Assembly (NCBI GenBank): GCA_039815385.1
Contig: JBCBZL010000088.1
Location: forward strand, 1 to 15,377
Source: Cyanobacteria bacterium P01_A01_bin.114
GTDB taxonomy: Bacteria; Cyanobacteriota; Cyanobacteriia; Phormidesmidales; Phormidesmidaceae
Direction of reading: 5' to 3'
Length of the DNA stretch: 15,377 nt
Shown here: positions 264 to 13,166 of the stretch, one piece after another
How the letters are laid out: each line of letters opens with the position of its first letter
Position numbering within the stretch: the stretch's first letter is position 1
Program-made: the position numbers and the translations under genes
The notes under the pieces: model-generated
What the model was told of the DNA's origin: nothing
The model's database searches: none
What the model saw: the letters and a program-made list of their open reading frames with translations, nothing else

Positions 264-1322
264 TTACTCAGAAAACCCCCTCGGTAAAACCTCTTCTGGA
301 AAGACAAACTTTTTCGCAGGCTGATCAAGCTCTGATACCCAGGCGCGTACCCCTTCATTGAGCAAAACATTTTTAGTGTAAAAAGTTTCGAACTCGGGAT
401 CTTGTGCCGCTCGGATTTCTTGACTCACAAAGTCATACGCTCGTAAGTTAAAAGCCAAACCCACCATGCCGATAGCGCTCATCCACAAGCCTGTTACCGG
501 CACAAACAGCATAAAGAAGTGGAGCCAACGCTTGTTAGAAAACGCAATCCCAAAGATTTGTGACCAAAAGCGATTAGCCGTCACCATCGAGTAGGTTTCT
601 TCTGCCTGAGTCGCGGAGAACCCACTAAAGGTGTTTTTACCTTCAGAATCTTTGAAAAGGGTATTTTGCACCGTTGCGCCATGAATCGCGCAGAGCAAGG
701 CCGCCCCCAGCACCCCGGTAACCCCCATCATATGAAAGGGATTGAGAGTGTAATTGTGAAACCCCTGGAAAAATAGCAGAAATCGGAAGATGGCAGCAAC
801 CCCAAAACTCGGTGCAAAAAACCAGCTTGACTGACCCAGCGGATAGATCAAAAATGTCGCGACAAAAACTGCAATGGGGGCTGAAAATGCGATCGCATTA
901 TAAGGCCGAATCCCCACCAAGCGAGCAATCTCAATCTGCCGCAGCATAAAACCCATCAGGCCTAGCACACCGTGGAAGGCGGTAAAATTCCACAGGCCGC
1001 CAATTTGGCACCAGCGGACAAAGTCCCCGTTGGCCTCTGGCCCCCACAAAAACAACAGTGAATGCCCCATGCTCTCGGCGGGGGTAGAGACGGCAGTTGT
1101 GAGAAAATTGCAGCCTTCTAGGTACGAGGTGACCAAGCCGTGGGTATACCAGGAGGTGACAAAGCTAGTGCCGGTAAACCAGGCCCCGATGGCTAAATAA
1201 GCACAGGGAAATAGCAACAGCCCTGACCACCCGATAAATACAAAGCGATCTCGTTTTAACCAGTCGTCAAGCTCGCCTATCCAGCTTCTAGCTGGCTTCA
1301 GCGCTCCCATTGAAATCGTCAT
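264..1322 (-). CDS. psbD3: Photosystem II D2 protein, divergent far-red (FaRLiP) paralog
   Basis: The 352-aa ORF is collinear with D2 from MTI... to ...[10 protein letters not shown]2 hallmarks are present: [27 protein letters not shown] (TyrD context), NPFHMMGV and CAIHGATV (His ligands), [11 protein letters not shown]. Many substitutions relative to the standard D2 I recall (e.g. [16 protein letters not shown]-terminus PRGFSE) and its position in a paralog cluster indicate a second copy. AAGGAG Shine-Dalgarno lies upstream of the ATG. Confidence 0.92.
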
Positions 1323-1349
1323 AATAGTCTCCTTGGGGTTATGTGTGTT

Positions 1350-1883
1350 TTAAGCAACTGACTCACTTTGACCGATACCGTCGTTCATGAAATAAGGAGG
1401 CCCCGGCAGGGCCAGCTCCTGAATAATTTCATCAAAATAAGGAACGATCGCTGCTGCATCGGCCTCTGTTAACTGTGCGATCGCTTCAGCTTTGAGGCAG
1501 CGCATATATTGCAAAATGTTTGTGAGGGGAATCCCGATATTGGTATACAGATCTTTCATCCCCACCAGGCCGATCTCTCTCAAGGGGCGATCGTCTCCAG
1601 CTAGCAAGCAGTAGCTAATCAAGCGAATATACCAACCGACATCTCGCTTGGCTGCCTCAGTTTTGCGACGATTGCCGCTGTTGCTAGGCGTCTTAGGACA
1701 GACCCGCCAAAATTGTCGAGTGCCTCGATCTACAATTGTTTGAGCCTGTTGCTCCAAAGTTTTGGCTAAGCGAATTCGCTCCGCTCCGGTTTTGCAAAAG
1801 GTGCGAATCATCCGCAGCTCACCGGGGGTAGGATAGCGCAGCTCTTCATCGGCGTTGAGAATAACTTGTTTAACGATACTCAT
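1350..1883 (-). CDS. apcD3: Allophycocyanin alpha-type subunit (ApcD-like, far-red paralog) lacking the canonical bilin-binding Cys and carrying a C-terminal extension
   Basis: I place the start at the ATG at 1883 (MSIVKQVILNADEELRY...), the normal phycobiliprotein alpha N-terminus. The track's 209-aa version starts at a TTG at 1979. It shares FWxxCxxTPSNSGN, GWYIRLISY and MRCLK with the other two alpha paralogs in this window. The aligned chromophore Cys (SC[LQ]RD in the paralogs) is Ala here (EAAKRD, codon at 1650-1652). The paralog number is assigned from gene order only. Confidence 0.8.
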   Translation of the reverse strand: MSIVKQVILNADEELRYPTPGELRMIRTFCKTGAERIRLAKTLEQQAQTIVDRGTRQFWRVCPKTPSNSGNRRKTEAAKRDVGWYIRLISYCLLAGDDRPLREIGLVGMKDLYTNIGIPLTNILQYMRCLKAEAIAQLTEADAAAIVPYFDEIIQELALPGPPYFMNDGIGQSESVA

Positions 1884-1890
1884 GGCTCTA

Positions 1891-1950
1891 CAGTTCGGAA
1901 TGTGGCAGCTCGGAATGAGATAATCCGGAAGGCAATAATTCGGAATACTG
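1891..1950. repeat. Four tandem 15-bp units, each containing TCGGAAT/CCGGAAG, directly upstream of the apcD3 start codon
   Basis: Units are cagTTCGGAATgtgg (1891-1905), cagCTCGGAATgaga (1906-1920), taaTCCGGAAGgcaa (1921-1935) and taaTTCGGAATactg (1936-1950). The core recurs at an exact 15-bp period (1895, 1910, 1925, 1940). The array ends 8 nt from the ATG at 1883 on the minus strand. Confidence 0.75.
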
Positions 1951-2100
1951 GGATCTGGGATAAACGCACACGCCTCCAAACCAACCGATATGGATGTGAT
2001 AGTCCAGGGGGTTGAAGGGCTGACAGAACAGCCTTAACCGTCTTAACGATTCTTTAGTGATAGGTTTCATGGGTCAGGTTCTCGATGTTAAAAGAACAAT

Positions 2101-4533
2101 TTAGGACTGGGCGCTGATCTCAGAGTCGACCGTATCCGCAACCGGCACTGTTTGTCCGTCAGGCGAGACCGCTTCTGTACGCCGCTCGCTATTGTCAGAA
2201 GAGATTGGTATGTTTTGCGTAGGCCGGTCTTGCTGGAGCAAATGCGATGGCTGAGCTTTAGACGGTTGAGTATCGTTAGGTGCTCGCTGAGTTTGACGAC
2301 TCGGGGCCATGACAGCCACGCTAGACCGATTCCCGATGCTAGAAACCGGATAGGGATGGTCGCGCATCCATTCACCTGCGGTGGGTGGGTTCTCTCTGGG
2401 CTTTGACCAGGCGACCGGGCCCTGGGGCGATCGCAACGCAAACCCACGCGGCGTCAGGTAGCGCTCGTAGGGGACGATATCTTCCCCAAAGACATCGCCA
2501 TATTCAGCACTGTCGACCAGGGTATCGACAAAGGCATAAAAGCCCTGGCGACCACAGATATCGTAGTAATGAGCCATTTCTCGTCGTCCGTAGGTGGGTC
2601 GCCCCAGCAACCGTCGATGGATATACTCAATTGCCTTGGTGACGTAGAGTTTTTCCCAGGTCATCTGACGAAACCAGCGAGTCTTGGCCAGCTGACGAAT
2701 AAACTCTCGCAGCGTGATCTGGCCTGCCTTGAGCTGAGTTTCGGCCACAGACTGTCGTTGAGTGTCAAAAACCTCGCGGCCAAACACCTGGCGATAGGCT
2801 GCTCGGATAACCGCTTCATGGGAATGGTGGGTGAGGTTCATGCTAGGCGGCGGTCCGGCTGTCGACCGGGCCAAATGGCCATTTCTAACCTGCCTGACCT
2901 GGCCAGACTCCCACCTCAGCACGTGACGGCCTAGGGAACCGGGGGCTCTGCCCAAATGGTTGCCCAGATGGCTGCCATTAACGCTGCCATTAGCGCCTCC
3001 GTTAGTGCTGCCGTGGCCGTTCCCCGCCCCGCTGCCAATTAAAATGCGGCGGCTGTCTTCGCTAAAATGAGCGGGTTGCGCTCTGGGGTCGCGAGTTTCT
3101 TGAGGGAAGATCGCCCCAAATTGAATTTCTAGCGGGTCGTTACCCACACCGTAGACATGTTGATTGGGTAAGGGCTGTTGATAGCTGGCAAAGGTGGTAA
3201 CAAACTGTGGCACCTTGCGAACAGGCGCACTGTACTTAAACAGATCTAGCTGCGGCCCCCAAATTCGGCATTCCTGGGCCTCTAGTCCCAACCCCCTGAG
3301 GAAAGGAACCGTCTCTTCACCAAAATAGTCGGCGTATTCCTCAGAGTCGATGAAGGTGTCTACCAGGGCTGGAAATCCCTGGGCCGAGATCACCTCAAAG
3401 CAGGTCTGAAACTCTTCCATGCAGCTTAACCCCCGTCCGAGAAAGTGGCGGCAGGCTAGCTCAATGCTGCGGCTGATCGTATAGGGCTCGTAATACAGCC
3501 GTCGATAGAGTCGCGATTTCCCCAGCTGACGAATAAACTCTTTCATCGACCAAAGACCGCTTTTAACCTGGGAGGTCAGCTCCGCCACAGCAGGCGCGTA
3601 GGGATGGGTAATATCGCGCTCGAAGACCTGTCGGTAAGCCGCCCGTATCACCTCATCTTTTTCAATGTCAGGCAGATCACGCTTCATCACCCATCGGGGT
3701 CGGGGGCTGCCGCTGTCACCATAGCTCTGGGGTAGCTGTAAGCCTGGATGATGCTTAGAAACCCCAACCCGCAGCCGAGGGGCCGGTTTTTCGACCCAAT
3801 AATCCGTAATCAGCACGTCAAAATACCGCTTGACTAGCGCCGCCGCTGCCGACTTAGCTGAAAAATAGGTGAGGGCTTTCCACTGCATTTCTTGCAGGGC
3901 GACAACGGTGGCCAGGGTGACATCCTCTGGAATCACGCCCCGCAGGCCTCGGGTATTGACACTGATGATGCTAGTGTCACCGGCCACAATGGCGTAGGTC
4001 ACATATCGCAAAAACCAGCTGAGATCCCGCAGCGAGCGCTTCATTCGAACGGGACCGTAGCGAGCGATGTCAATGGCCCGAAATCGACTGGGAACAGCAG
4101 GTTTACCCCCAGCCATCATGCCTTTAACCCACTCCATCAAACCGTTGGAGGCGTCTACAGAGCGGGGGCGATCTTGGACGACAGCCCGCTCTCGCTTTTG
4201 TCGGGTCGCTGCAGAGAGAAAGTCTTCTCCGACGTAGTAGCCTGAGCCCGGCAAACCCAGGGGGTCTTCGGGACGCTCTAGATAGGCCATCGCATTGCCC
4301 CCGACAAAGATGCGATTAGCCCCGGCAGCCACAATTTTGTCGGCTTGCTGAGTCAGGGTCTGGGCAATCTCTAGTCGCTTGAGTCCTGAGCTAAAGAAGG
4401 CTGAGAGTTCTTTGGCCTCGCTCTGGGTTAGATAGCGATCGCGCTGTTGCGCCTCAACAACTACCGCAGTCGGCACAGTGTGATACAGCTGCGGATGGAC
4501 AACTGGGCTGCCCCCGTTAATCTGATCGGTCAT
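2101..4533 (-). CDS. apcE2: Short phycobilisome core-membrane linker (ApcE paralog) with two REP/linker domains and a cysteine-free phycobiliprotein domain
   Basis: 810 aa. The N-terminal phycobiliprotein-like domain has a PB-loop (..PQLYHTVP..DRYL..RLEIAQTLTQQADKIVAAGANRIF..RYGPVRMKRSLRDLSWFLRYVTYAIVAGD..VALQEM). Only two linker (REP) repeats are present: EVIRAAYRQVFERD...FGEETVPFLRGLG (aa ~294-416) and EAVIRAAYRQVFGRE...FGEDIVPYERYLTPRG (aa ~573-697). Housekeeping ApcE has 3-4 REPs. Confidence 0.92.
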   Translation of the reverse strand: MTDQINGGSPVVHPQLYHTVPTAVVVEAQQRDRYLTQSEAKELSAFFSSGLKRLEIAQTLTQQADKIVAAGANRIFVGGNAMAYLERPEDPLGLPGSGYYVGEDFLSAATRQKRERAVVQDRPRSVDASNGLMEWVKGMMAGGKPAVPSRFRAIDIARYGPVRMKRSLRDLSWFLRYVTYAIVAGDTSIISVNTRGLRGVIPEDVTLATVVALQEMQWKALTYFSAKSAAAALVKRYFDVLITDYWVEKPAPRLRVGVSKHHPGLQLPQSYGDSGSPRPRWVMKRDLPDIEKDEVIRAAYRQVFERDITHPYAPAVAELTSQVKSGLWSMKEFIRQLGKSRLYRRLYYEPYTISRSIELACRHFLGRGLSCMEEFQTCFEVISAQGFPALVDTFIDSEEYADYFGEETVPFLRGLGLEAQECRIWGPQLDLFKYSAPVRKVPQFVTTFASYQQPLPNQHVYGVGNDPLEIQFGAIFPQETRDPRAQPAHFSEDSRRILIGSGAGNGHGSTNGGANGSVNGSHLGNHLGRAPGSLGRHVLRWESGQVRQVRNGHLARSTAGPPPSMNLTHHSHEAVIRAAYRQVFGREVFDTQRQSVAETQLKAGQITLREFIRQLAKTRWFRQMTWEKLYVTKAIEYIHRRLLGRPTYGRREMAHYYDICGRQGFYAFVDTLVDSAEYGDVFGEDIVPYERYLTPRGFALRSPQGPVAWSKPRENPPTAGEWMRDHPYPVSSIGNRSSVAVMAPSRQTQRAPNDTQPSKAQPSHLLQQDRPTQNIPISSDNSERRTEAVSPDGQTVPVADTVDSEISAQS

Positions 4534-4565
4534 GGTGTTTCCAAATCTCCAAATTCAACACTGCA

Positions 4566-5045
4566 CTAGGGCATTAGCCCTTGAATCAGATAGTCAAAGT
4601 AGGGGGCTACCTCCGCCGCGTCCTCTAGACTGAGGAAGTCTAAGGTGACTTCCTTGAGACAGCGCATACACTCCACTAAGTTTCTGAGGGGAATCTCCAA
4701 GGAGAGATACATTTCTTTGGCTCCTCTGATGCCGCTAGCCTGAAGCGGATCAATATCACCGACCACCACTGCATAAGAAATCAGGCGGATAAACCAACCC
4801 TGATCGCGCAGGCAGGAGGCCCGAAAGGTTGGGTTCCCGCTATTGCTGGGGGTGACTGCACAGCGCTGCCAAAAACGCTGGCTACCTTTTTCAACAATTG
4901 ACTGGACATTGTTAGTCAGAATAGAAGCAATTCGAAGCCGCTGCTGCCCATCTTGAAAGAAATGGCTAATGGTATCCAGTTCTCCTCGACTGAGATAGCG
5001 GGCCTCTCGATCGGCATTAGAGATTGCCTGGGTAATGATGCTCAT
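4566..5045 (-). CDS. apcD2: Allophycocyanin alpha-type subunit (ApcD-like, far-red paralog)
   Basis: 159 aa, MSIITQAISNADREARYLSRGELD... It retains the chromophore Cys (RASCLRDQGWFIRLISY) and shares FWQRCAVTPSNSGN and ECMRCLK with the other alpha paralogs here. The paralog number is tentative, from the order apcD5-apcB2-apcD2-apcE2-apcD3. Confidence 0.8.
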   Translation of the reverse strand: MSIITQAISNADREARYLSRGELDTISHFFQDGQQRLRIASILTNNVQSIVEKGSQRFWQRCAVTPSNSGNPTFRASCLRDQGWFIRLISYAVVVGDIDPLQASGIRGAKEMYLSLEIPLRNLVECMRCLKEVTLDFLSLEDAAEVAPYFDYLIQGLMP

Positions 5046-5083
5046 GATGAATGGGTTACCTTAACTAATATTCGATTTTGATA

Positions 5084-5210
5084 GGTGAGGGCGCTGCGCT
5101 GGTGAGGGCGCTGCGCTGGTGAGGGCGCTGCGCTGGTGAGGGCGCTGCGCTGGTGAAGACGCTGCGCTGGTGAGGGCGCTACGCTGGTGAGGACGCTGCG
5201 CTGGTGAACA
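5084..5210. repeat. Tandem array of a 17-bp unit GGTGAGGGCGCTGCGCT (about 7.5 copies)
   Basis: Four exact copies lie at 5084-5151. Variant copies follow: GGTGAAGACGCTGCGCT (5152-5168), GGTGAGGGCGCTACGCT (5169-5185), GGTGAGGACGCTGCGCT (5186-5202), then a partial GGTGAACA. The array sits in the apcB2-apcD2 intercistronic spacer. The unit length is not a multiple of 3 and no ORF spans it. Confidence 0.9.
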
Positions 5211-5220
5211 GTGAAGACTT

Positions 5221-5290
5221 CATCACCTACTCACCTACTCACCTACTCACTCACTCACCCACTCACCCACTCACCACTCACCCCCTCGCC
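5221..5290. repeat. Degenerate octamer array (CACCTACT x3, then CACTCACT, CACCCACT x2, CACCACT, CACCCCCT)
   Basis: The sequence reads catCACCTACTCACCTACTCACCTACTCACTCACTCACCCACTCACCCACTCACCACTCACCCCCTCGCC. Its CTCACC cores are the reverse complement of the GGTGAG cores of the adjacent 17-bp array. The array ends 7 nt before the apcB2 stop. Confidence 0.85.
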
Positions 5291-5296
5291 TAACGA

Positions 5297-5782
5297 CTAG
5301 CTGAGCCCCGAGCAGATATGGTCAAAGCAAACTCCCATTTCTCGACCGGCTTCTGCCCCTAGCATCTCGTTGACCACTTCCTTCATCGCCTGCACAGAGC
5401 GTACTGTAGCCCCCACTGGTACCCCCAGAGAGTTGTAAGTTTCTTTTAAGCCGTTGAGCACGCGCTCATCTAAAATGGACGGATCGCCCGCCAGCATGGC
5501 GTAGGTCGCATAGCGCAAGAAATACTCGACGTCACGAACACAGGCCGCATAGCGGCGACAGGTATACATATTGCCGCCGGGGCCAGTAATGTCGGTATAG
5601 AGGAGCGCTTTGGCGACTGTTTTGGTAACAATTGTGGAGGTGTTAGCGCTGATGGACATCGCTGCCCGCGCTCGCAAATCGCCACTGCGAAAATAGGATT
5701 GCAGATTTTCTAATGAAGCGTCGTCTAAATACTTACCTTGCACGTCAGAAGAATTGATCAAGGTGGTGATGGCGTCTTGCAT
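5297..5782 (-). CDS. apcB2: Allophycocyanin beta subunit, far-red paralog
   Basis: 161 aa, [20 protein letters not shown]... with the beta-type chromophore site [23 protein letters not shown] and [20 protein letters not shown] Shine-Dalgarno upstream. It lies directly downstream of an alpha-type gene, as in apcA-apcB operons. Confidence 0.9.
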
Positions 5783-5847
5783 GTTTTTCTCCTTAAGGGT
5801 TTGAAAATGATTGAATGATCTGTTGGCTATTAAAATTTGCGTCTTGA

Positions 5848-6324
5848 CTACAGCAGAGAATGGATAATGAGATCAAAATAGGGAGCCACCTCTTGGGCAT
5901 CTTCTTCGCTCAAGACGGTCATGGCTTCTTCCTTGAGACAGCGCATGCACTCTGCAATATTCCTAATCGGGATTTCTAGATTGTTGTACATTTCTTTGAT
6001 GCCCACCGTGCCAATTTCTTCTAGGGGGCGTTCGCTGCCTGCCAAGATAGAGTAGGCAATCAAGCGAACATACCAGCCTTGATCGCGCTGACAGGAGGCT
6101 GTCTTACGCTCATTGCCGCTGTTGCTTGGGGTATTTGGGCAGCGCTCCCAGAACTTTTGACTGCCGTTTTGGACAATCCGCTGTTCATTTTCGGCCAGGG
6201 CCCTGGCAATGCGAATGCGCTGTTCTCCCGTTTTGACAAAGTCTTGAAAGATTCGAAGTTCCTTGGGCGCAGGGTAGCGAGCTTCACTATCTGCACTGAG
6301 AATGAGTTCTGTAACCAGGCTCAT
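5848..6324 (-). CDS. apcD5: Allophycocyanin alpha-type subunit (far-red paralog, first gene of the apc block)
   Basis: 158 aa, [23 protein letters not shown]... It retains the chromophore Cys ([17 protein letters not shown]) and has [14 protein letters not shown] and ECMRCLK. Its position immediately upstream of apcB2 suggests the gene originally called apcA2 and later apcD5. That symbol is tentative. Confidence 0.8.
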
Positions 6325-6497: not shown

Positions 6498-6654
6498 GCC
6501 CTCATCCTAAATCCTTCTCCCAATCTGGGAGAAAGACTTTGATCTGAGCCAGCTTTTCCCTGGCGAAGGACTCTTAAAACAATCGAATTCTACGTTGAGA
6601 AAGGCTTGGCTCCCCTTCTCTCAGTACTGGGAGAAGGGGTTGGGGGATGAGGGC
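6498..6654. repeat. MITE-like inverted-repeat element in the apcD5/psbO divergent intergenic region
   Basis: The termini are exact reverse complements: GCCCTCATCC (6498-6507) and GGATGAGGGC (6645-6654). Imperfect ~40-bp arms each contain a CTTCTCCCA..TGGGAGAAG-type hairpin. The right arm ends in GGGGTTGGGGGAT, related to the element at 136-259. Confidence 0.7.
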
Positions 6655-6767
6655 CTGTGAGCATGCTAGCTACCAGTATGTTATCTGTTTGCAGGTCCCT
6701 AAATGCCCGTCAAGCCTCGGGGAGACTCTTCTTACTAAGGTTTGCAAGAAGAATAAGCAAAGAAAAT

Positions 6768-6871
6768 GGAGAACTTATGAAAATATGAAAACTGCTTAAT
6801 AAAGGTTAATAATTAGCGGTGAACAGATTTCGTCTTCAGATTTCGTCTTCATAAGTTCTCCAGTTTTTTTT
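6768..6871 (+). promoter_or_regulatory. 13-bp perfect inverted repeat enclosing a 13-bp x2 direct repeat and followed by a T8 tract, ~105-205 bp upstream of psbO
   Basis: GGAGAACTTATGA (6768-6780) is the exact reverse complement of TCATAAGTTCTCC (6849-6861). This is followed by AG and TTTTTTTT (6864-6871). Inside the loop are CAGATTTCGTCTT x2 (6824-6836, 6837-6849) and TATGAAAA x2 (6776-6791). The function is unknown; it could be an attenuator, an operator or a small MITE. Confidence 0.4.
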
Positions 6872-6974: not shown

Positions 6975-7805
6975 ATGAGATATCGCACTTTAATGATGAG
7001 TTTATTAGTCTTGTGTTTTGGAGTATTCATGGCTTGCAGTCGTGCGCCGAGCGCGCAAGCTGAAGGATTAAGCTACGACGACATTAAAGGGAGCGGACTG
7101 GCTAATAACTGCCCTGAGCTTTCGCAGAGCAGTCTAGATGCCATTGTTATAGATGCTGATCAGTCTTATCAACTGAATGGGCTGTGCTTACAGCCCGAAG
7201 CGTTTTTGGTGAGGCGAGCGCCCCTCATAAAGCGCCAGGAGAGCAAATTTGTGCGCACCAAGCCCCTCACTCGGGAGAGTTTTAGCCTCGATCAGGTTAG
7301 CGGTGCTCTACAGAGGGGGGCCGATGGAAATTTGGCGTTTGTTGAGCAAGGAGGATTTGACTTTCAGCCTGTGACGGTTCAACTGCCTGATGGCGAGCGA
7401 GTGCCCCTGCTGTTTACAGTTAAAGGATTAGTGGCTAAAAAACAAGATGATTCAAACAACTTCGGCCCCTCTACTCGCCTGGTGGGCACCTTTCAGGTAC
7501 CGCCCTACCGGACTTCTAGCTTTATTGATCCAAAGGGTCGGGGCTTAGCCGTGGGCTACGATGCGGCGGTGGGGCTGCCGAGTCAGGCAGACCGTGAAGC
7601 ATTTGCTCGTCAGAACATTAAGACGTTTGATATTGGGCAGGGACGGATTGCGCTGCAAATTAATCGGGTCAACCGCACAACCGGAGAAATTGCCGGTCTT
7701 TTTGAAAGCGAGCAGCCGTCTGATACCGACTTCGGTTCTAAAGAAGCGATGGATGTCAAAATTCGAGGGCAGTTCTACGGTCGCATTGAGCCGGCAGTCG
7801 TTTAG
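6975..7805 (+). CDS. psbO: PSII manganese-stabilising protein (PsbO) paralog with signal peptide
   Basis: 276 aa. An N-terminal hydrophobic signal (MRYRTLMMSLLVLCFGVFMAC..SAQA) precedes PsbO hallmarks: LSYDDIKGSGLANNCPE, LCLQPEAFLV, GGFDFQPVTVQLPDGERVPLLFTVKGLV, FIDPKGRGLAVGYDAAVGLP, TGEIAGLFESEQPSDTDFG and VKIRGQFYGRIEP. The conserved Cys pair is present. Confidence 0.92.
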   Translation: MRYRTLMMSLLVLCFGVFMACSRAPSAQAEGLSYDDIKGSGLANNCPELSQSSLDAIVIDADQSYQLNGLCLQPEAFLVRRAPLIKRQESKFVRTKPLTRESFSLDQVSGALQRGADGNLAFVEQGGFDFQPVTVQLPDGERVPLLFTVKGLVAKKQDDSNNFGPSTRLVGTFQVPPYRTSSFIDPKGRGLAVGYDAAVGLPSQADREAFARQNIKTFDIGQGRIALQINRVNRTTGEIAGLFESEQPSDTDFGSKEAMDVKIRGQFYGRIEPAVV

Positions 7806-7832
7806 TCGAGTTTTAATAAGAGGTTCTTTATC

Positions 7833-7967
7833 ATGACTAACTTGAATCGTGACCCAGAGATTATCTATCCTATCTTTACGATTCGGTGGCTGTCGGTGCA
7901 TGCACTGGCGATTCCGAGCGTATTTTTCTTAGGGGCGATCGCAGCGATGCAGTTTATTCAGCGCTGA
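7833..7967 (+). CDS. psbF: Cytochrome b559 beta subunit (PsbF) paralog; small ORF absent from the supplied track
   Basis: My own translation of ATG 7833 to TGA 7965-7967 gives [44 protein letters not shown] (44 aa). This matches the PsbF pattern YPIFT[VI]RWL[AS]VH..[AV][15 protein letters not shown], including the heme-ligand His. It starts 27 nt after the psbO stop. Confidence 0.88.
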
Positions 7968-8064
7968 GGCTGCACCAGGGCATAATCACGCTGAGAAGCC
8001 CGTAAATTGGATGGGGTGAAATACGCTTTCTGAATCGCAACCGCCTCTGAATCGCAATCGCCGT

Positions 8065-8098
8065 AGAAGCCGGATTTTCTAATCCGGCTTCTTTTCTT
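8065..8098 (+). terminator. Intrinsic terminator hairpin between convergent psbF and psbV
   Basis: A perfect 12-bp stem is formed by AGAAGCCGGATT (8065-8076) and AATCCGGCTTCT (8081-8092), with loop TTCT, followed by TTTCTT on the plus strand. On the minus strand the same stem lies 20 nt after the psbV stop but has no U-tract. Confidence 0.7.
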
Positions 8099-8111
8099 AT
8101 GGGCTGTCAAC

Positions 8112-8636
8112 CTAGCGGGCAGGTTTGCCGCCGGCCCACTTGTCGCCAATGATTTTAGGCTGGACCAAAATATAGCCTGCGATCGCAACTAAATCATCCT
8201 CAGTCAAATCTCGCATCTTGGGAAAGAGATCGGCTCTTGACATGGACGGGTGCAGTTCGGCAATCGAGGAAACCCCATCGTAGGTGGTGGGGTTCTCAAA
8301 ATAATCAACCAGGCTTTCAATATTGTCACGGGGTGGGGTTGCTAACGCCAACGCTTGAGGCCCTAGATCGACATCAGGATTAGGTTTGCTCACCCCATCT
8401 AAGTGACACTGGGCACAGCTGCCATTAAACTTGCGCTGACCCACAACGAGTTGTTCCAGGCTCAGCGTGAGGGTTTCCCCTGACGCGTTGAGCGGAACCG
8501 TGCGGGTAGCCTCGTCAATTTCAACGGCGAGCGCCCTATTAGCCCCGATCACCGCCCATAGAACAGATGAAAGGGATATCACCAGCACAGCGTATATAGC
8601 AAACTTGATTAAGTTTTTTTTGAAATAGGCAATCAT
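8112..8636 (-). CDS. psbV: Cytochrome c550 (PsbV) paralog with signal peptide
   Basis: 174 aa. A signal peptide ends ..ANRALA. PsbV hallmarks follow: TVPLNASGETLTLS, heme motif CAQCH, LALATPPRDNIESLVDYFENPTTYDG, ELHPS (distal His), DLFPKMRDLTEDDLVAIAGYILVQPKIIGDKWAGGK. AGGAG Shine-Dalgarno upstream. Confidence 0.9.
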   Translation of the reverse strand: MIAYFKKNLIKFAIYAVLVISLSSVLWAVIGANRALAVEIDEATRTVPLNASGETLTLSLEQLVVGQRKFNGSCAQCHLDGVSKPNPDVDLGPQALALATPPRDNIESLVDYFENPTTYDGVSSIAELHPSMSRADLFPKMRDLTEDDLVAIAGYILVQPKIIGDKWAGGKPAR

Positions 8637-8737
8637 TTCGACATATCTCCTGAAAACGGTTTTGCCAAGTAAATAGCCATAACTAAGGGATCTGTGGGAT
8701 TTGCAACAAATAACATCTCGCTTCTAAATCGGGGGTT

Positions 8738-8840
8738 GGGTAGTGGGTAGTGGGTAGTGGGTAGTGAGTTGTTTGTTACTTGTTACTCGTTATTTGTAAT
8801 TGAAGTCACCAATCACCAATCACCAATCACCTACTCACAC
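8738..8840. repeat. STRR-like short tandem repeat block (GGGTAGTG x4, TGTTACT-like x3, CACCAAT x3, CACCTACTCAC)
   Basis: The sequence reads GGGTAGTGGGTAGTGGGTAGTGGGTAGTGAGTTGTTTGTTACTTGTTACTCGTTATTTGTAATTGAAGTCACCAATCACCAATCACCAATCACCTACTCACAC. It lies 100-200 bp upstream of the psbV start. Confidence 0.85.
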
Positions 8841-8972: not shown

Positions 8973-9051
8973 GAGATCCCCCCAGCCCCCCTTAGCTCTA
9001 GCGAAGCGGCGGGCAAAGCCCGCGGGGGTGGCGCAGCCGGGGGGATCCCTC
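8973..9051. repeat. Inverted-repeat element related to the one at 136-259, in opposite orientation
   Basis: GATCCCCCC (8975-8983) pairs with GGGGGGATC (9039-9047), with an inner hairpin GCGGGC-aaa-GCCCGC (9009-9023). The reverse complement of 8973-8993 (AAGGGGGGCTGGGGGGATCTC) differs at one base from 166-186 (AAGGGGGGTTGGGGGGATCTC). Confidence 0.7.
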
Positions 9052-9347
9052 GGAAACGTGAAACAGTGAGTAATTTACTGACGCGGTACTTATTCTCCTC
9101 AAAGCGGAGTCAAGTTAGAGCTATATATCTAATAGCTTGAAAGTATCATACTCTTCTGGCCCTCAATGAATCAGATACCCTTTTTTGAAATAAGAAAGAA
9201 CAAAATTAGCATTCCCTTGTAACTTTTTCTAACACTGATCTTGGCCTTCATTAGTTCTCCATATTTCTCTTTTATTCTTGGCTTCACTGGCTGACAGACA
9301 GGTCGTACAGATCTAGTTGCGATCGTCAGAATAATTCGACTACAAAA

Positions 9348-9522: not shown

Positions 9523-10764
9523 ATGACACAGTTTGGTAGAACGATCGCTTTTAATCGTCCTGACCAACTCCCTGGCCAACTCAAAGCGCCGGATAGCGTG
9601 TCTGACATCGAAAGCCTGTCCAGTGGTGTGAGCCCTCCAGATAGAGCCGCGATTCCAGAGCCCATTTCTCTTTGGGAACGCTTTTGTCGTTGGGTGACGA
9701 GTACTGAAAATCGGATCTACATTGGCTGGTTTGGGATGATTATGTTTCCCACCCTGTCTACGGCTGCCATTGTCTTTGTGCTGGCGTTTATAGCTGCGCC
9801 CGCAGTTGATATGGAGGGGACTGGGAGAGTCCTTTCGGGGGCTCTATTTGATGGAAATAACCTGATTACAGCCGCTGTTGTGCCGACTTCAGCTGCGATT
9901 GGGCTGCATTTTTACCCCATTTGGGAAGCTGCCTCTTTAGAGGAATGGCTCGTCAACGGGGGGCCGTATCAGCTAATTGTGCTGCATTTCATTATTGGCA
10001 TCATCAGCTATCAAGACCGAGAGTGGGAATTAAGCTATCGCTTAGGCATGCGCCCCTGGATTTCGCTGGCGTTTACAGCACCGGTTGCAGCGGCTGTCTC
10101 AGTGTTATTAATTTATCCGATTGGTCAGGGCAGCTTTTCGTCGGGCATGCCCTTGGGTATTTCGGGTACCTTTACCTTCATGCTGCAGTTTCAAGCCGAT
10201 CACAACATTCTGGCCAACCCGTTTCATCAGCTAGGGGTCATCGGTGTCTTTGGCGGTGCTTTGCTGTGTGCAGTCCACGGCTCATTAGTGACATCAGCCC
10301 TGATTCGACAAACTGACCACGGGTCTGATCGCGAATCTACGTTACCAGCGCGAGCTGAGTTGAAGAGAGCCCAAACAAAAATCCAGAGAAAAGCCCAGAA
10401 AACTTATAGCTTTGAGCATATCCAGGGCTACCAGCAGAAGCTGTTCTGGCGTGGGGTGAGTTTCAAAAACTCACGGTCTGTACACTTTGTTTTAGCGGCT
10501 CTCCCTGTGGCGGGTATCTGGTCGGCAGCATTGGGGATCGACATGGCTGCTTTTGGCTTTGATCAATTTTCTGGGTCTTCCAATGGATATTTCCAGAAAA
10601 CGGTCGTGCCCACCTGGTCTGATATTGTTGTTCGGGCCGATCTGGGGCTTCAGGCGGTTGAAGACACCCGTGAACCGATGTTCCCAATTTTTCTGGGAGA
10701 GGAGTCTGAATTTGATGTCAATACAGATGTCAATACGAATATTGCCGATCTAGACATGACTTGA
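9523..10764 (+). CDS. chlF: Super-rogue D1 paralog: chlorophyll f synthase (ChlF / PsbA4)
   Basis: 413 aa with a D1 fold ([70 protein letters not shown]). It has a ~37-aa N-terminal extension, a 12-aa basic insertion in the D-E loop and a C-terminal extension. The Mn4CaO5 ligand positions are replaced: D170>S (codon 10141-10143), E189>D, H332>E, H337>P, D342>F. The D1 Y-M-G-R triplet region reads Y-Q-D-R (QD codons 10012-10017). AGGAG Shine-Dalgarno upstream. Confidence 0.88.
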
Positions 10765-10814: not shown

Positions 10815-13166
10815 ATGACCACAAGTCCTCCGGAGCAGAGGCAGCAGGTTAGGGTTGTCGTCGATGATAATCCGGTTCCTACATCCTTTGAGAAGTGGGC
10901 AAAGCCGGGGCATTTTGAGCGAACCCTGGCACGGGGCCCCAAAACCACCACCTGGATTTGGGATCTGCATGCCGATGCCCATGATTTTGATAGTCATACC
11001 AGTGATTTGGAAGAGATTTCTCGAAAAATCTTCTCTGCCCATTTTGGTCATTTGGCCATCGTATTTATTTGGCTGAGTGGAATGTATTTCCACGGGGCTC
11101 GCTTTTCTAACTTTTCTGCTTGGATGAGCGACCCGACTCATATCAAGCCGAGTGCTCAAGTCGTTTGGCCAATTGTTGGGCAAGACATCCTCAACGCCGA
11201 TGTGGGGGGCGGCTTCCGGGGCATCCAAATTACCTCCGGGCTGTTTCAAATGTGGCGTGGACAAGGGTTTACCCATGAGTTCCAGCTTTACTGGACGGCC
11301 ATCGGTGCGCTAGTCATGGCGGCGCTGATGCTGTTTGCCGGCTGGTTTCACTACCACGTTCGGGCTCCCAAGCTAGAGTGGTTTCTCAACTGGGAGTCGA
11401 TGATGAACCATCACCTGGCAGGTCTGCTGGGGATGGGCAGTCTGGGCTGGGCTGGGCACCTGATCCATGTGGCACTGCCTACCAATAAGCTGCTGGATGC
11501 TGGGGTCGCCTTGGAAAACATTCCCCTACCCCATGATTTCATTCTGGATAAGGGGCTGATGGCAGAGCTCTATCCTAGCTTTGCCCAGGGTGTGAAGCCG
11601 TTTTTTACGCTGAACTGGTCGGCCTATACCGATTTTCTCACCTTTAGGGGTGGGCTCAATCCGGTGACGGGGGGCCTGTGGATGACGGATATTGCGCATC
11701 ATCATGTTGCGATCGCAGTCCTATTCATCATTGCAGGGCATTTCTACCGCACCAACTGGGGCATTGGCCACACCTTTAATGAGCTGCTGGACGATGCCAG
11801 AACCCCCAAAATGCTGCCCATCTTTAACTTTATTGGGCCGGTCGGACACCGGGGTCTTGAGAAAATCTTTGAGACGTCGTGGCACGCCAATCTCTCTATC
11901 CACCTGGTTCAGTTTGGTACGGCTAGTCTGCTGGTGGCTCATCACATGTACGCGATGCCGCCCTACCCCTACTTAGCCACGGACTATGCCACCGTGACCT
12001 CGCTGTTTACCCATCACGTCTGGATTGCAGGCTTCTGCATTGTGGGCGGGGCTGCCCATGCCGCCATCTTTATGGTGAGAGACTACAACCCCGCTGATCA
12101 CGTTAACAATGTGCTCGATCGGGTGTTACGCCATCGAGACGCGATTATCTCTCACCTGGCCTGGGTCTGTCAGTTCTTAGGCTTCCACAGCTTTGCCATG
12201 TACTGTCACAACGACACCATGCGAGCCTTTGGCCGTCCCCAGGATATGTTTTCTGACACCGGGATTCAGCTCCAGCCCATTTTTGCCCAGTGGATTCAGC
12301 ACATTCACACCATGGCGGTGGGCAGCCTGCAAGCGGCAGAGCCCCTGGGCAGTGCCTTTGGCGGTCTGCGTAACATCGAGCTGTCGGGCCTGGGCACCAC
12401 GGTTCCTGGAATGGCTGAGCCGGTCAGCTACGCCTTTGGCGGCGGCGTCCTGGCGGTGGGTGGCAAAGTCGCCATGATGCCCATTCCCCTGGGCACTGCC
12501 GATTTCTTAATCCATCACATTCACGCTTTCACCATTCATGTGACGGTGCTGGTACTGCTCAAAGGGGTGCTGTTTGCCCGCAGTTCTCGCTTGATTCCTG
12601 ATAAGGGCGAGCTGGGCTTCCGATTCCCCTGCGATGGGCCGGGCCGGGGGGGCACCTGCCAAGTGTCTGCCTGGGATCACGTGTTCTTAGGGTTGTTCTG
12701 GATGTATAACTCGCTTTCGATTGTGATATTTCACTTCTTTTGGAAAATGCAATCGGACGTCTGGGGCACGGTAAGCGCCGATGGCACCATTACTCATATT
12801 ACGGGGGGCAACTTTGCCCTGTCATCGATTACCAACAACGGCTGGCTGCGCGATTTTCTCTGGGCGCAGGCTTCCCAGGTGATCAACTCCTACGGCTCGG
12901 CACTGTCTGCCTACGGAATCATGTTCCTGGCTGGGCACTTTGTCTTTGGCTTTAGCCTGATGTTTTTATTCAGCGGTCGCGGCTACTGGCAAGAGCTGAT
13001 CGAGTCGATTGTTTGGGCTCACAACAAGCTGAAAATTACCACCGCGATTCAGCCTCGAGCCTTGAGTATCACCCAAGGACGAGCCGTGGGCGTTGCCCAC
13101 TACCTGTTAGGAGGTATTGTCACCACCTGGGCCTTCTTTTTGGCCCGTATGTCCGCAGTCGGATAG
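10815..13166 (+). CDS. psaA2: Photosystem I P700 apoprotein A1, far-red paralog
   Basis: 783 aa, collinear with PsaA: [31 protein letters not shown], the FX motif [19 protein letters not shown], and the C-terminal [36 protein letters not shown]. It has many substitutions and a ~24-aa insertion relative to the standard PsaA I recall. It lies 50 nt downstream of chlF, with AAGGAG Shine-Dalgarno upstream. Confidence 0.93.

Follow-up and report, generated by a model that had tools for sequence, protein, structure and literature searches.

We analysed a stretch of 15,377 nucleotides of cyanobacterial DNA (the window), which is one complete 15.4-kb contig of the metagenome-assembled genome (MAG) "Cyanobacteria bacterium P01_A01_bin.114" and which contains genes for the photosystem II (PSII) subunits PsbO, PsbF and PsbV within a far-red light photoacclimation (FaRLiP) gene cluster. 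The psbO gene, of the far-red-cluster type and encoding a manganese-stabilising protein precursor of 276 amino acids (aa), lies on the forward strand at positions 6975-7805, and is followed on the same strand by a psbF paralogue encoding a 44-aa cytochrome b559 beta subunit (7833-7967). The psbV gene, also of the far-red-cluster type, encodes a 174-aa cytochrome c-550 precursor and is convergent with psbO-psbF, on the reverse strand at 8112-8636. An initial annotation of this DNA had placed three open reading frames (ORFs) at precisely these coordinates, and all three were found there intact. It had also described them as embedded in the cluster, and profile searches agreed, identifying a far-red-type apc operon with psbD on one side (264-6324, reverse strand), and on the other side a chlF-like divergent PsbA gene (9523-10764, forward strand; psbA-family score 460.5, under the cut-off of 596) and psaA (10815-13166, forward strand).

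The psbF gene starts 27 nt past the end of psbO and has its own ribosome-binding site, AAGAGG. An intrinsic-terminator-like hairpin, with a 12-bp stem containing 6 G-C pairs followed by TTTCTT, was identified on the forward strand at 8065-8092, 20 nt from the psbV stop codon, where it would end the predicted psbO-psbF transcript. From the short gap, the ribosome-binding site and the T-tailed hairpin we read psbO-psbF as a two-gene operon facing a convergent psbV, as had been proposed, and the gene order and spacing fit this arrangement. We found no psbE, psbL or psbJ in the window, and psbF follows psbO outside any psbEFLJ operon. Canonical psbF stands beside psbE in such an operon, whereas psbF of the window is detached from psbE; the psbEFLJ context is a feature of the housekeeping locus and not of the PsbF protein family.

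All three proteins were assigned to their families by curated cut-offs. PsbO matched the Pfam MSP family PF01716 with 328.5 bits (E value 2.6e-98, cut-off 25 bits), its residues 32-271 covering profile positions 3-242 of 242. PsbF scored 84.5 bits against TIGR01333 (cyt_b559_beta, cut-off 61.15), and PsbV 213.8 bits against TIGR03045 (PS_II_C550, cut-off 177.75). Ligand and cysteine positions were taken from the translated sequences and by aligning these with PSII chains of known structure, and the signal peptide and cofactor ligands that the initial annotation had listed were retained. PsbO begins with an intact signal peptide, the hydrophobic N-terminus MRYRTLMMSLLVLCFGVFMACSRAPSAQA, which ends in AQA and is followed by EG, and its Cys46 and Cys71 align with the disulfide-forming Cys pair of Thermosynechococcus elongatus. 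In PsbF, His23 aligns with the haem-ligating His of PsbF in 7SA3/8EQM and in other structures, and in PsbV both C74-A-Q-C77-H78 and the distal His129 (within ELHPS) align with canonical PsbV. The window proteins share with canonical PSII (e.g. that of Thermosynechococcus) their families, the Cys pair, the haem ligands and the overall length, and align with its subunits from end to end. The NCBI call for PsbO (MEO0456736.1, P0001) is a 258-aa protein that differs over 6975-7028, since it begins at an internal Met and lacks most of the signal peptide; we prefer the 276-aa ORF because homologues span its full length.

We additionally noted that a lipobox-like LLTAC(S/G) closes the signal peptide in the majority of related PsbO precursors, whether cluster-linked or canonical (L030, L033). 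At the same site (window 6975-7067, residues 1-31) the window protein has FMACS, and the 93%-identical protein of locus L005 has TAFS, with no Cys. Lipoprotein status is not normally ascribed to PsbO.

To place these proteins among their homologues, we examined trees and diagnostic residues. A neighbour-joining tree built from 136 PsbO sequences placed all 27 cluster-linked proteins within one clade of 80 tips, which also contained PsbO of the window. We scored 13 PsbO positions that were chosen as separating cluster-linked from outgroup proteins, among them (canonical to cluster type) Gly55Asp, Thr102Ser, Asp168Arg and Met253Phe; on these selected positions known cluster-linked PsbO proteins carried 7-13 of the cluster-type residues, canonical outgroup proteins 0-3, and PsbO of the window all 13. 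Cluster-linked PsbV proteins likewise formed one clade, of 82 tips and all of 170-179 aa, with PsbV of the window inside it. In the cluster-type PsbV proteins residue 67 is Gln, residue 80 (the one that follows CXXCH-Leu) is Asp, residue 155 is Tyr and the C-terminus reads KPxR (KPAR in the window), whereas canonical PsbV has Lys, Gly, His and KIYY at the matching positions and is mostly 163 aa long. The C-terminal Tyr of canonical PsbV is located at the exit of a lumenal hydrogen-bond network, and its loss could matter functionally. PsbF is too short for its clade membership to be resolved.

We investigated the conservation of the gene order using a single scan of species-representative genomes, with PsbO of the window as the query, which returned 29 genome loci onto which the window proteins were placed with tblastn. 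The psbO gene was directly divergent from the far-red apc operon in 25 of the 29 loci, including those of Halomicronema hongdechloris and Synechococcus sp. PCC 7335; of the 24 loci that could be assessed for psbF, 20 had it behind psbO, and psbV was present in all 21 that could be assessed. Two layouts were identified. In the window type, psbO and psbF (followed in some loci by nblA) face a convergent psbV, and chlF, psaA2 and psaB2 come next; this layout was found in Leptolyngbya cf. ectocarpi LEGE 11479, Oscillatoria sp. CS-180, Vasconcelosia minhoensis, Nodosilinea sp. P-1105 and several MAGs, and the named relatives of the window are Nodosilineales. In the Phormidesmis or PCC 7335 type, psbO, psbF, nblA and psbV all run in one direction and are followed by housekeeping genes. 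A different arrangement was found in an Elainellaceae MAG, in which psbO alone, with no psbF or psbV, lies between apc and the rfp/psa genes. In this MAG, whose cluster is of the Oculatellales type, a 112-aa gene without a Pfam hit (L037:10963-11301, JBNPEG010000167.1) follows psbO and precedes the rfp genes.

A paralogue of nblA, which encodes a phycobilisome-degradation protein (here 55-73 aa), was found between psbF and psbV in L002 (9563-9730), L034 (11059-11280) and about 15 further loci, PCC 7335 included. We identified no nblA remnant at 22 bits or above in the gap between psbF and psbV of the window (7968-8111), and the paralogue is also missing from L005 (the closest relative), Oscillatoria CS-180, Nodosilinea P-1105 and H. 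hongdechloris. The optional FaRLiP genes named in the passage quoted from Antonaru 2024 (bioRxiv 10.1101/2024.05.15.594131) do not include this paralogue, which may connect far-red acclimation with phycobilisome turnover.

We then searched for the regulatory motif of the cluster. The motif TTCATWRGTTCTYCA was found three times without mismatch in the window, where 0.18 occurrences would be expected. The reference copy is the core of the long chlF-type motif, TTCATTAGTTCTCCA, on the forward strand at 9247-9261, 262 nt upstream of chlF; this copy has a 5' box, TTGTAACTTTTTCTAA (9218-9233, forward strand). A second exact match, at 6767-6781 on the reverse strand, faces the far-red apc operon. The third, TTCATAAGTTCTCCA followed by a T-run, lies on the forward strand at 6848-6862, with 113 nt between it and the start codon (ATG) of psbO downstream, and is a "short" version without the 5' box. 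An inverted repeat of 23 nt (6759-6781 / 6848-6870, 91% complementary) spans both motifs of the divergent control region between apc and psbO. In 18 related loci the motif likewise precedes psbO, at a distance of 86-239 nt; PCC 7335 (173 nt) is one of them. Across 492 kb of non-redundant related loci we found 54 matches with at most one mismatch, each lying between genes, upstream of apc, psbO or chlF and in the orientation of that gene, and a search at the same stringency found none at the canonical psbO loci L030, L031 and L033. Copies upstream of chlF carry the extra 5' box CTGTAACTTTTyCTAA, whereas those upstream of psbO lack it, a difference that agrees with the classes of motif ("chlF", "long" and "short") distinguished in Antonaru 2024.

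Close to the psbO motif, we noted a perfect 13-bp tandem duplication, CAGATTTCGTCTT, present in 2.2 copies at 6824-6851, directly 5' of the motif and overlapping it. The wider spacing between the apc and psbO motifs in the window (motif starts 81 nt apart, compared with about 68 nt in L005 and other relatives) can be attributed to this duplication.

A further far-red-type psbO was identified in another bin, P01_A01_bin.84 (L001/L028, JBCCDM010000491.1, 3338-4203), with 12 of the 13 signature residues and, 91 nt before the gene, a FaRLiP motif. On the upstream side it adjoins a gene for a DEAD-box helicase and not the apc operon, so that either far-red-type psbO is not always attached to apc genes or the cluster has been rearranged there. 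The product of this gene (P0063) had been a candidate for the housekeeping PsbO of the MAG studied here, which we ruled out since it belongs to the other bin; it was likewise rejected as a canonical PsbO on its signature and motif.

Among the known systems closest to the window are those of H. hongdechloris and PCC 7335, each of which has a second PsbO and a second PsbV. In H. hongdechloris C2206, as in the window, the apc operon is divergent from psbO (XM38_010880), and a convergent psbV is followed by chlF-psaA2-psaB2-psaL-psaF-psaJ-rfp; the locus is orthologous and syntenic with the window. It differs in that psbO and psbV are separated by 152 bp with no psbF between them, and in its PsbO, which is 60% identical to that of the window, no more than 7 of the 13 signature positions have the cluster-type residue. 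Chen et al. 2019 (PMC6416890) reported that the extra PsbO and PsbV encoded in this cluster reach higher levels in far-red light.

For Synechococcus sp. PCC 7335, the initial annotation had suggested, with reservation, that such extra genes might be present. This proved right: psbO-psbF-nblA-psbV lies immediately divergent from the far-red apc/psbD3-C2-B2-H2 operon and has the same motif upstream of psbO. The orthologues resemble those of the window in PsbO (63% identity), PsbF (35 of 44 residues) and PsbV (62%), but psbV is co-directional with the other genes, nblA lies between psbF and psbV, and hfq and dapF follow rather than chlF and the psa genes. The best solved match to PsbO of the window is chain O of 8EQM, the far-red PSII of PCC 7335 (1.2e-109; runner-up 1.5e-89), and this chain is the cluster-adjacent PsbO. 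The best solved match to PsbF is chain F of 7SA3/8EQM (PsbF2 of PCC 7335), which is identical to the cluster-adjacent PsbF save for the GTG start codon. Thus, PsbO1 and PsbF2, described as the more abundant isoforms in PCC 7335 far-red PSII (Gisriel 2022, PMC9843442), are the products of the cluster-adjacent genes. The PCC 7335 authors regarded psbO1-psbF2-nblA-psbV as a duplication that is unique, recent and not part of the FaRLiP cluster; the conserved synteny and the motif lead us to argue that this motif-bearing operon, and the PsbO and PsbF in the far-red PSII, are members of the far-red regulon rather than unrelated duplicates.

Antonaru 2024 listed 19 core FaRLiP genes, with psbO2, psbV2 and psbF2 as optional genes found mainly in lineage VI (Nodosilineales), and reported a short motif upstream of psbO. 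The window agrees with this description in the genes, the lineage and the short psbO motif, and nothing material differs. We consider psbO, psbF and psbV of the window to be, with good probability, these lineage-specific accessory FaRLiP genes, carried in Nodosilineales-type cyanobacteria.

Several points weigh against this interpretation. The analysis covered one contig of the MAG, on which no housekeeping psbO, psbEFLJ or psbV was found, and the status of the three genes as extra copies was verified only in the complete genomes of relatives. The 29 loci were retrieved through PsbO similarity, and so speak to conservation of the linkage rather than to prevalence among all FaRLiP clusters. For PCC 7335, Gisriel 2022 treated the PsbO, PsbV and PsbF isoforms as outside any FaRLiP cluster, and both psbF genes were described as "not modulated by FaRLiP" (Gisriel 2021, PMC8689208). 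The remaining points concern psbV. A profile search with nhmmer found no motif upstream of the convergent psbV, either in the window or in any related locus. Chain V of the PCC 7335 far-red PSII is PsbV1, which falls among canonical PsbV proteins in our tree, and to which the cluster-adjacent PsbV is identical at about half of the aligned residues. An isoform named PsbV2, which may be the cluster-adjacent PsbV, gave only two peptides.

These observations on psbV suggest an alternative, in which the module is far-red-regulated but only psbO-psbF act in far-red PSII, psbV being a separately regulated c-550 variant with another or a minor role. The presence, in many relatives, of a promoter-like block with an extended -10 element upstream of psbV would fit such separate regulation. 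Against it, PsbV of the H. hongdechloris cluster rises in far-red light alongside the cluster proteins, psbV is kept in every assessable locus, and where the layout is of the PCC 7335 type it runs in the same direction as psbO-psbF-nblA. In addition, the occupancy of the extrinsic subunits in 8EQM is only about 25%, which makes the assignment of their isoforms, including that of PsbV, weak. We consider this alternative rather unlikely.

A second alternative is that these are ordinary constitutive psbO, psbF and psbV genes that merely lie beside the FaRLiP cluster, and are neither far-red-specialised nor far-red-regulated. The naming of the adjacent PCC 7335 gene product as PsbO1, the statements of those authors on psbF and on the exclusion of the isoforms from the cluster, and the scores of PsbF and PsbV of the window, which pass canonical equivalog models, are all compatible with it, as is the verification of second copies in relatives and not in this MAG. 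However, the position between apc and chlF is kept across three subclades, and PsbO and PsbV belong to clades with signature residues distinct from the canonical proteins. The motif common to chlF and apc is also found upstream of psbO and is absent at canonical psbO loci, PCC 7335 and H. hongdechloris each have their second PsbO and PsbV, and in the latter the cluster copies are induced by far-red light (PMC6416890). On this evidence constitutive copies are improbable. Finally, the idea that psbV encodes PsbV2 in the Thermosynechococcus sense (TIGR03046, a c550-like protein with other axial ligation) and no true cytochrome c-550, which the preprint name "psbV2" invites and to which a weak, partial TIGR03046 match of 79.6 bits might lend some colour, was rejected on the family scores as having next to no chance of being correct, since this score is far under the cut-off of 148.35 while TIGR03045 was passed, and since the CXXCH and the distal His align with canonical PsbV.

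Identification of the three genes as accessory FaRLiP genes bears on the proposal of the initial annotation that the lumenal face of PSII and its cytochromes b559 and c550 are remodelled in far-red light. The proposal is supported by orthologues: those of PsbO and PsbF are present in the far-red PSII of PCC 7335, but the remodelling of cytochrome c550 is the weakest part of the proposal, because the PSII structure from that strain carries canonical PsbV. Far-red induction at the protein level, and the presence of PsbO and PsbF in far-red PSII, have been shown in the literature for orthologues; for the organism of the window we infer RfpB regulation, expression and assembly, and any functional consequence of the substitutions is likewise an inference.

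By analogy with characterised strains, a sequence of events can be envisaged. In far-red light, the RfpABC cascade would switch on transcription from the conserved, T-rich motif that precedes chlF, psbO and the apc operon. The psbO-psbF transcript would start downstream of the motif at 6848-6862 and end at the hairpin at 8065-8092. PsbO would be exported to the lumen and cap the Mn cluster on a core of far-red PsbA3, PsbB2, PsbC2 and PsbD3, and PsbF would pair with housekeeping PsbE to form cytochrome b559. The cluster-type PsbV, expressed from its own promoter, may be able to replace canonical cytochrome c-550. Far-red PSII has to oxidise water with less energy per photon, which makes any modification of its donor side interesting mechanistically.

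The arrangement itself is already known from the literature (Chen 2019; Gisriel 2021, 2022; Antonaru 2024). Knowledge of additional PsbO and PsbV in FaRLiP clusters dates from 2019 and that of psbF2 from 2021-2024, and the window is one further example, from the MAG of an uncultured marine cyanobacterium. Our modest additions are the orthology of the cluster genes with the 7SA3/8EQM chains, the finding that the PCC 7335 operon is preceded by the motif, the signature residues of the proteins, and the frequent occurrence of an nblA paralogue in the module. We tentatively propose that psbO-psbF-nblA-psbV may be an ancestral, motif-controlled set of four genes within the FaRLiP regulon of Nodosilineales and of cyanobacteria of the Phormidesmis type, PCC 7335 included. 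If this were true, replacement of donor-side subunits would be coupled to NblA-driven phycobilisome turnover, and the cluster-type PsbV, without the Tyr-Tyr end and with an Asp beside the haem motif, would alter the lumenal proton exit or the haem environment.

We additionally identified repeats in the intergenic regions of the window. Between psbV and chlF, at 8737-8831, three adjoining heptamer arrays were found (TGGGTAG in 4.3 copies, TTGTTAC in 3.6 and TCACCAA in 3.7), which resemble cyanobacterial short tandemly repeated sequences and sit where relatives have the promoter-like block of psbV. GC-rich inverted repeats are present in both intergenic regions (6506-6644 and 8975-9047), for example with the arms CCTAAATCCTTCTCCCA / TGGGAGAAGGGGTTGGG and GATCCCCCCAGC / GCCGGGGGGATC, and could be small inserted palindromic elements. 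The repeat at 6506-6644 may account for the distance of the apc-facing motif from the apc start, which is 443 nt in the window and 187 nt in L005.

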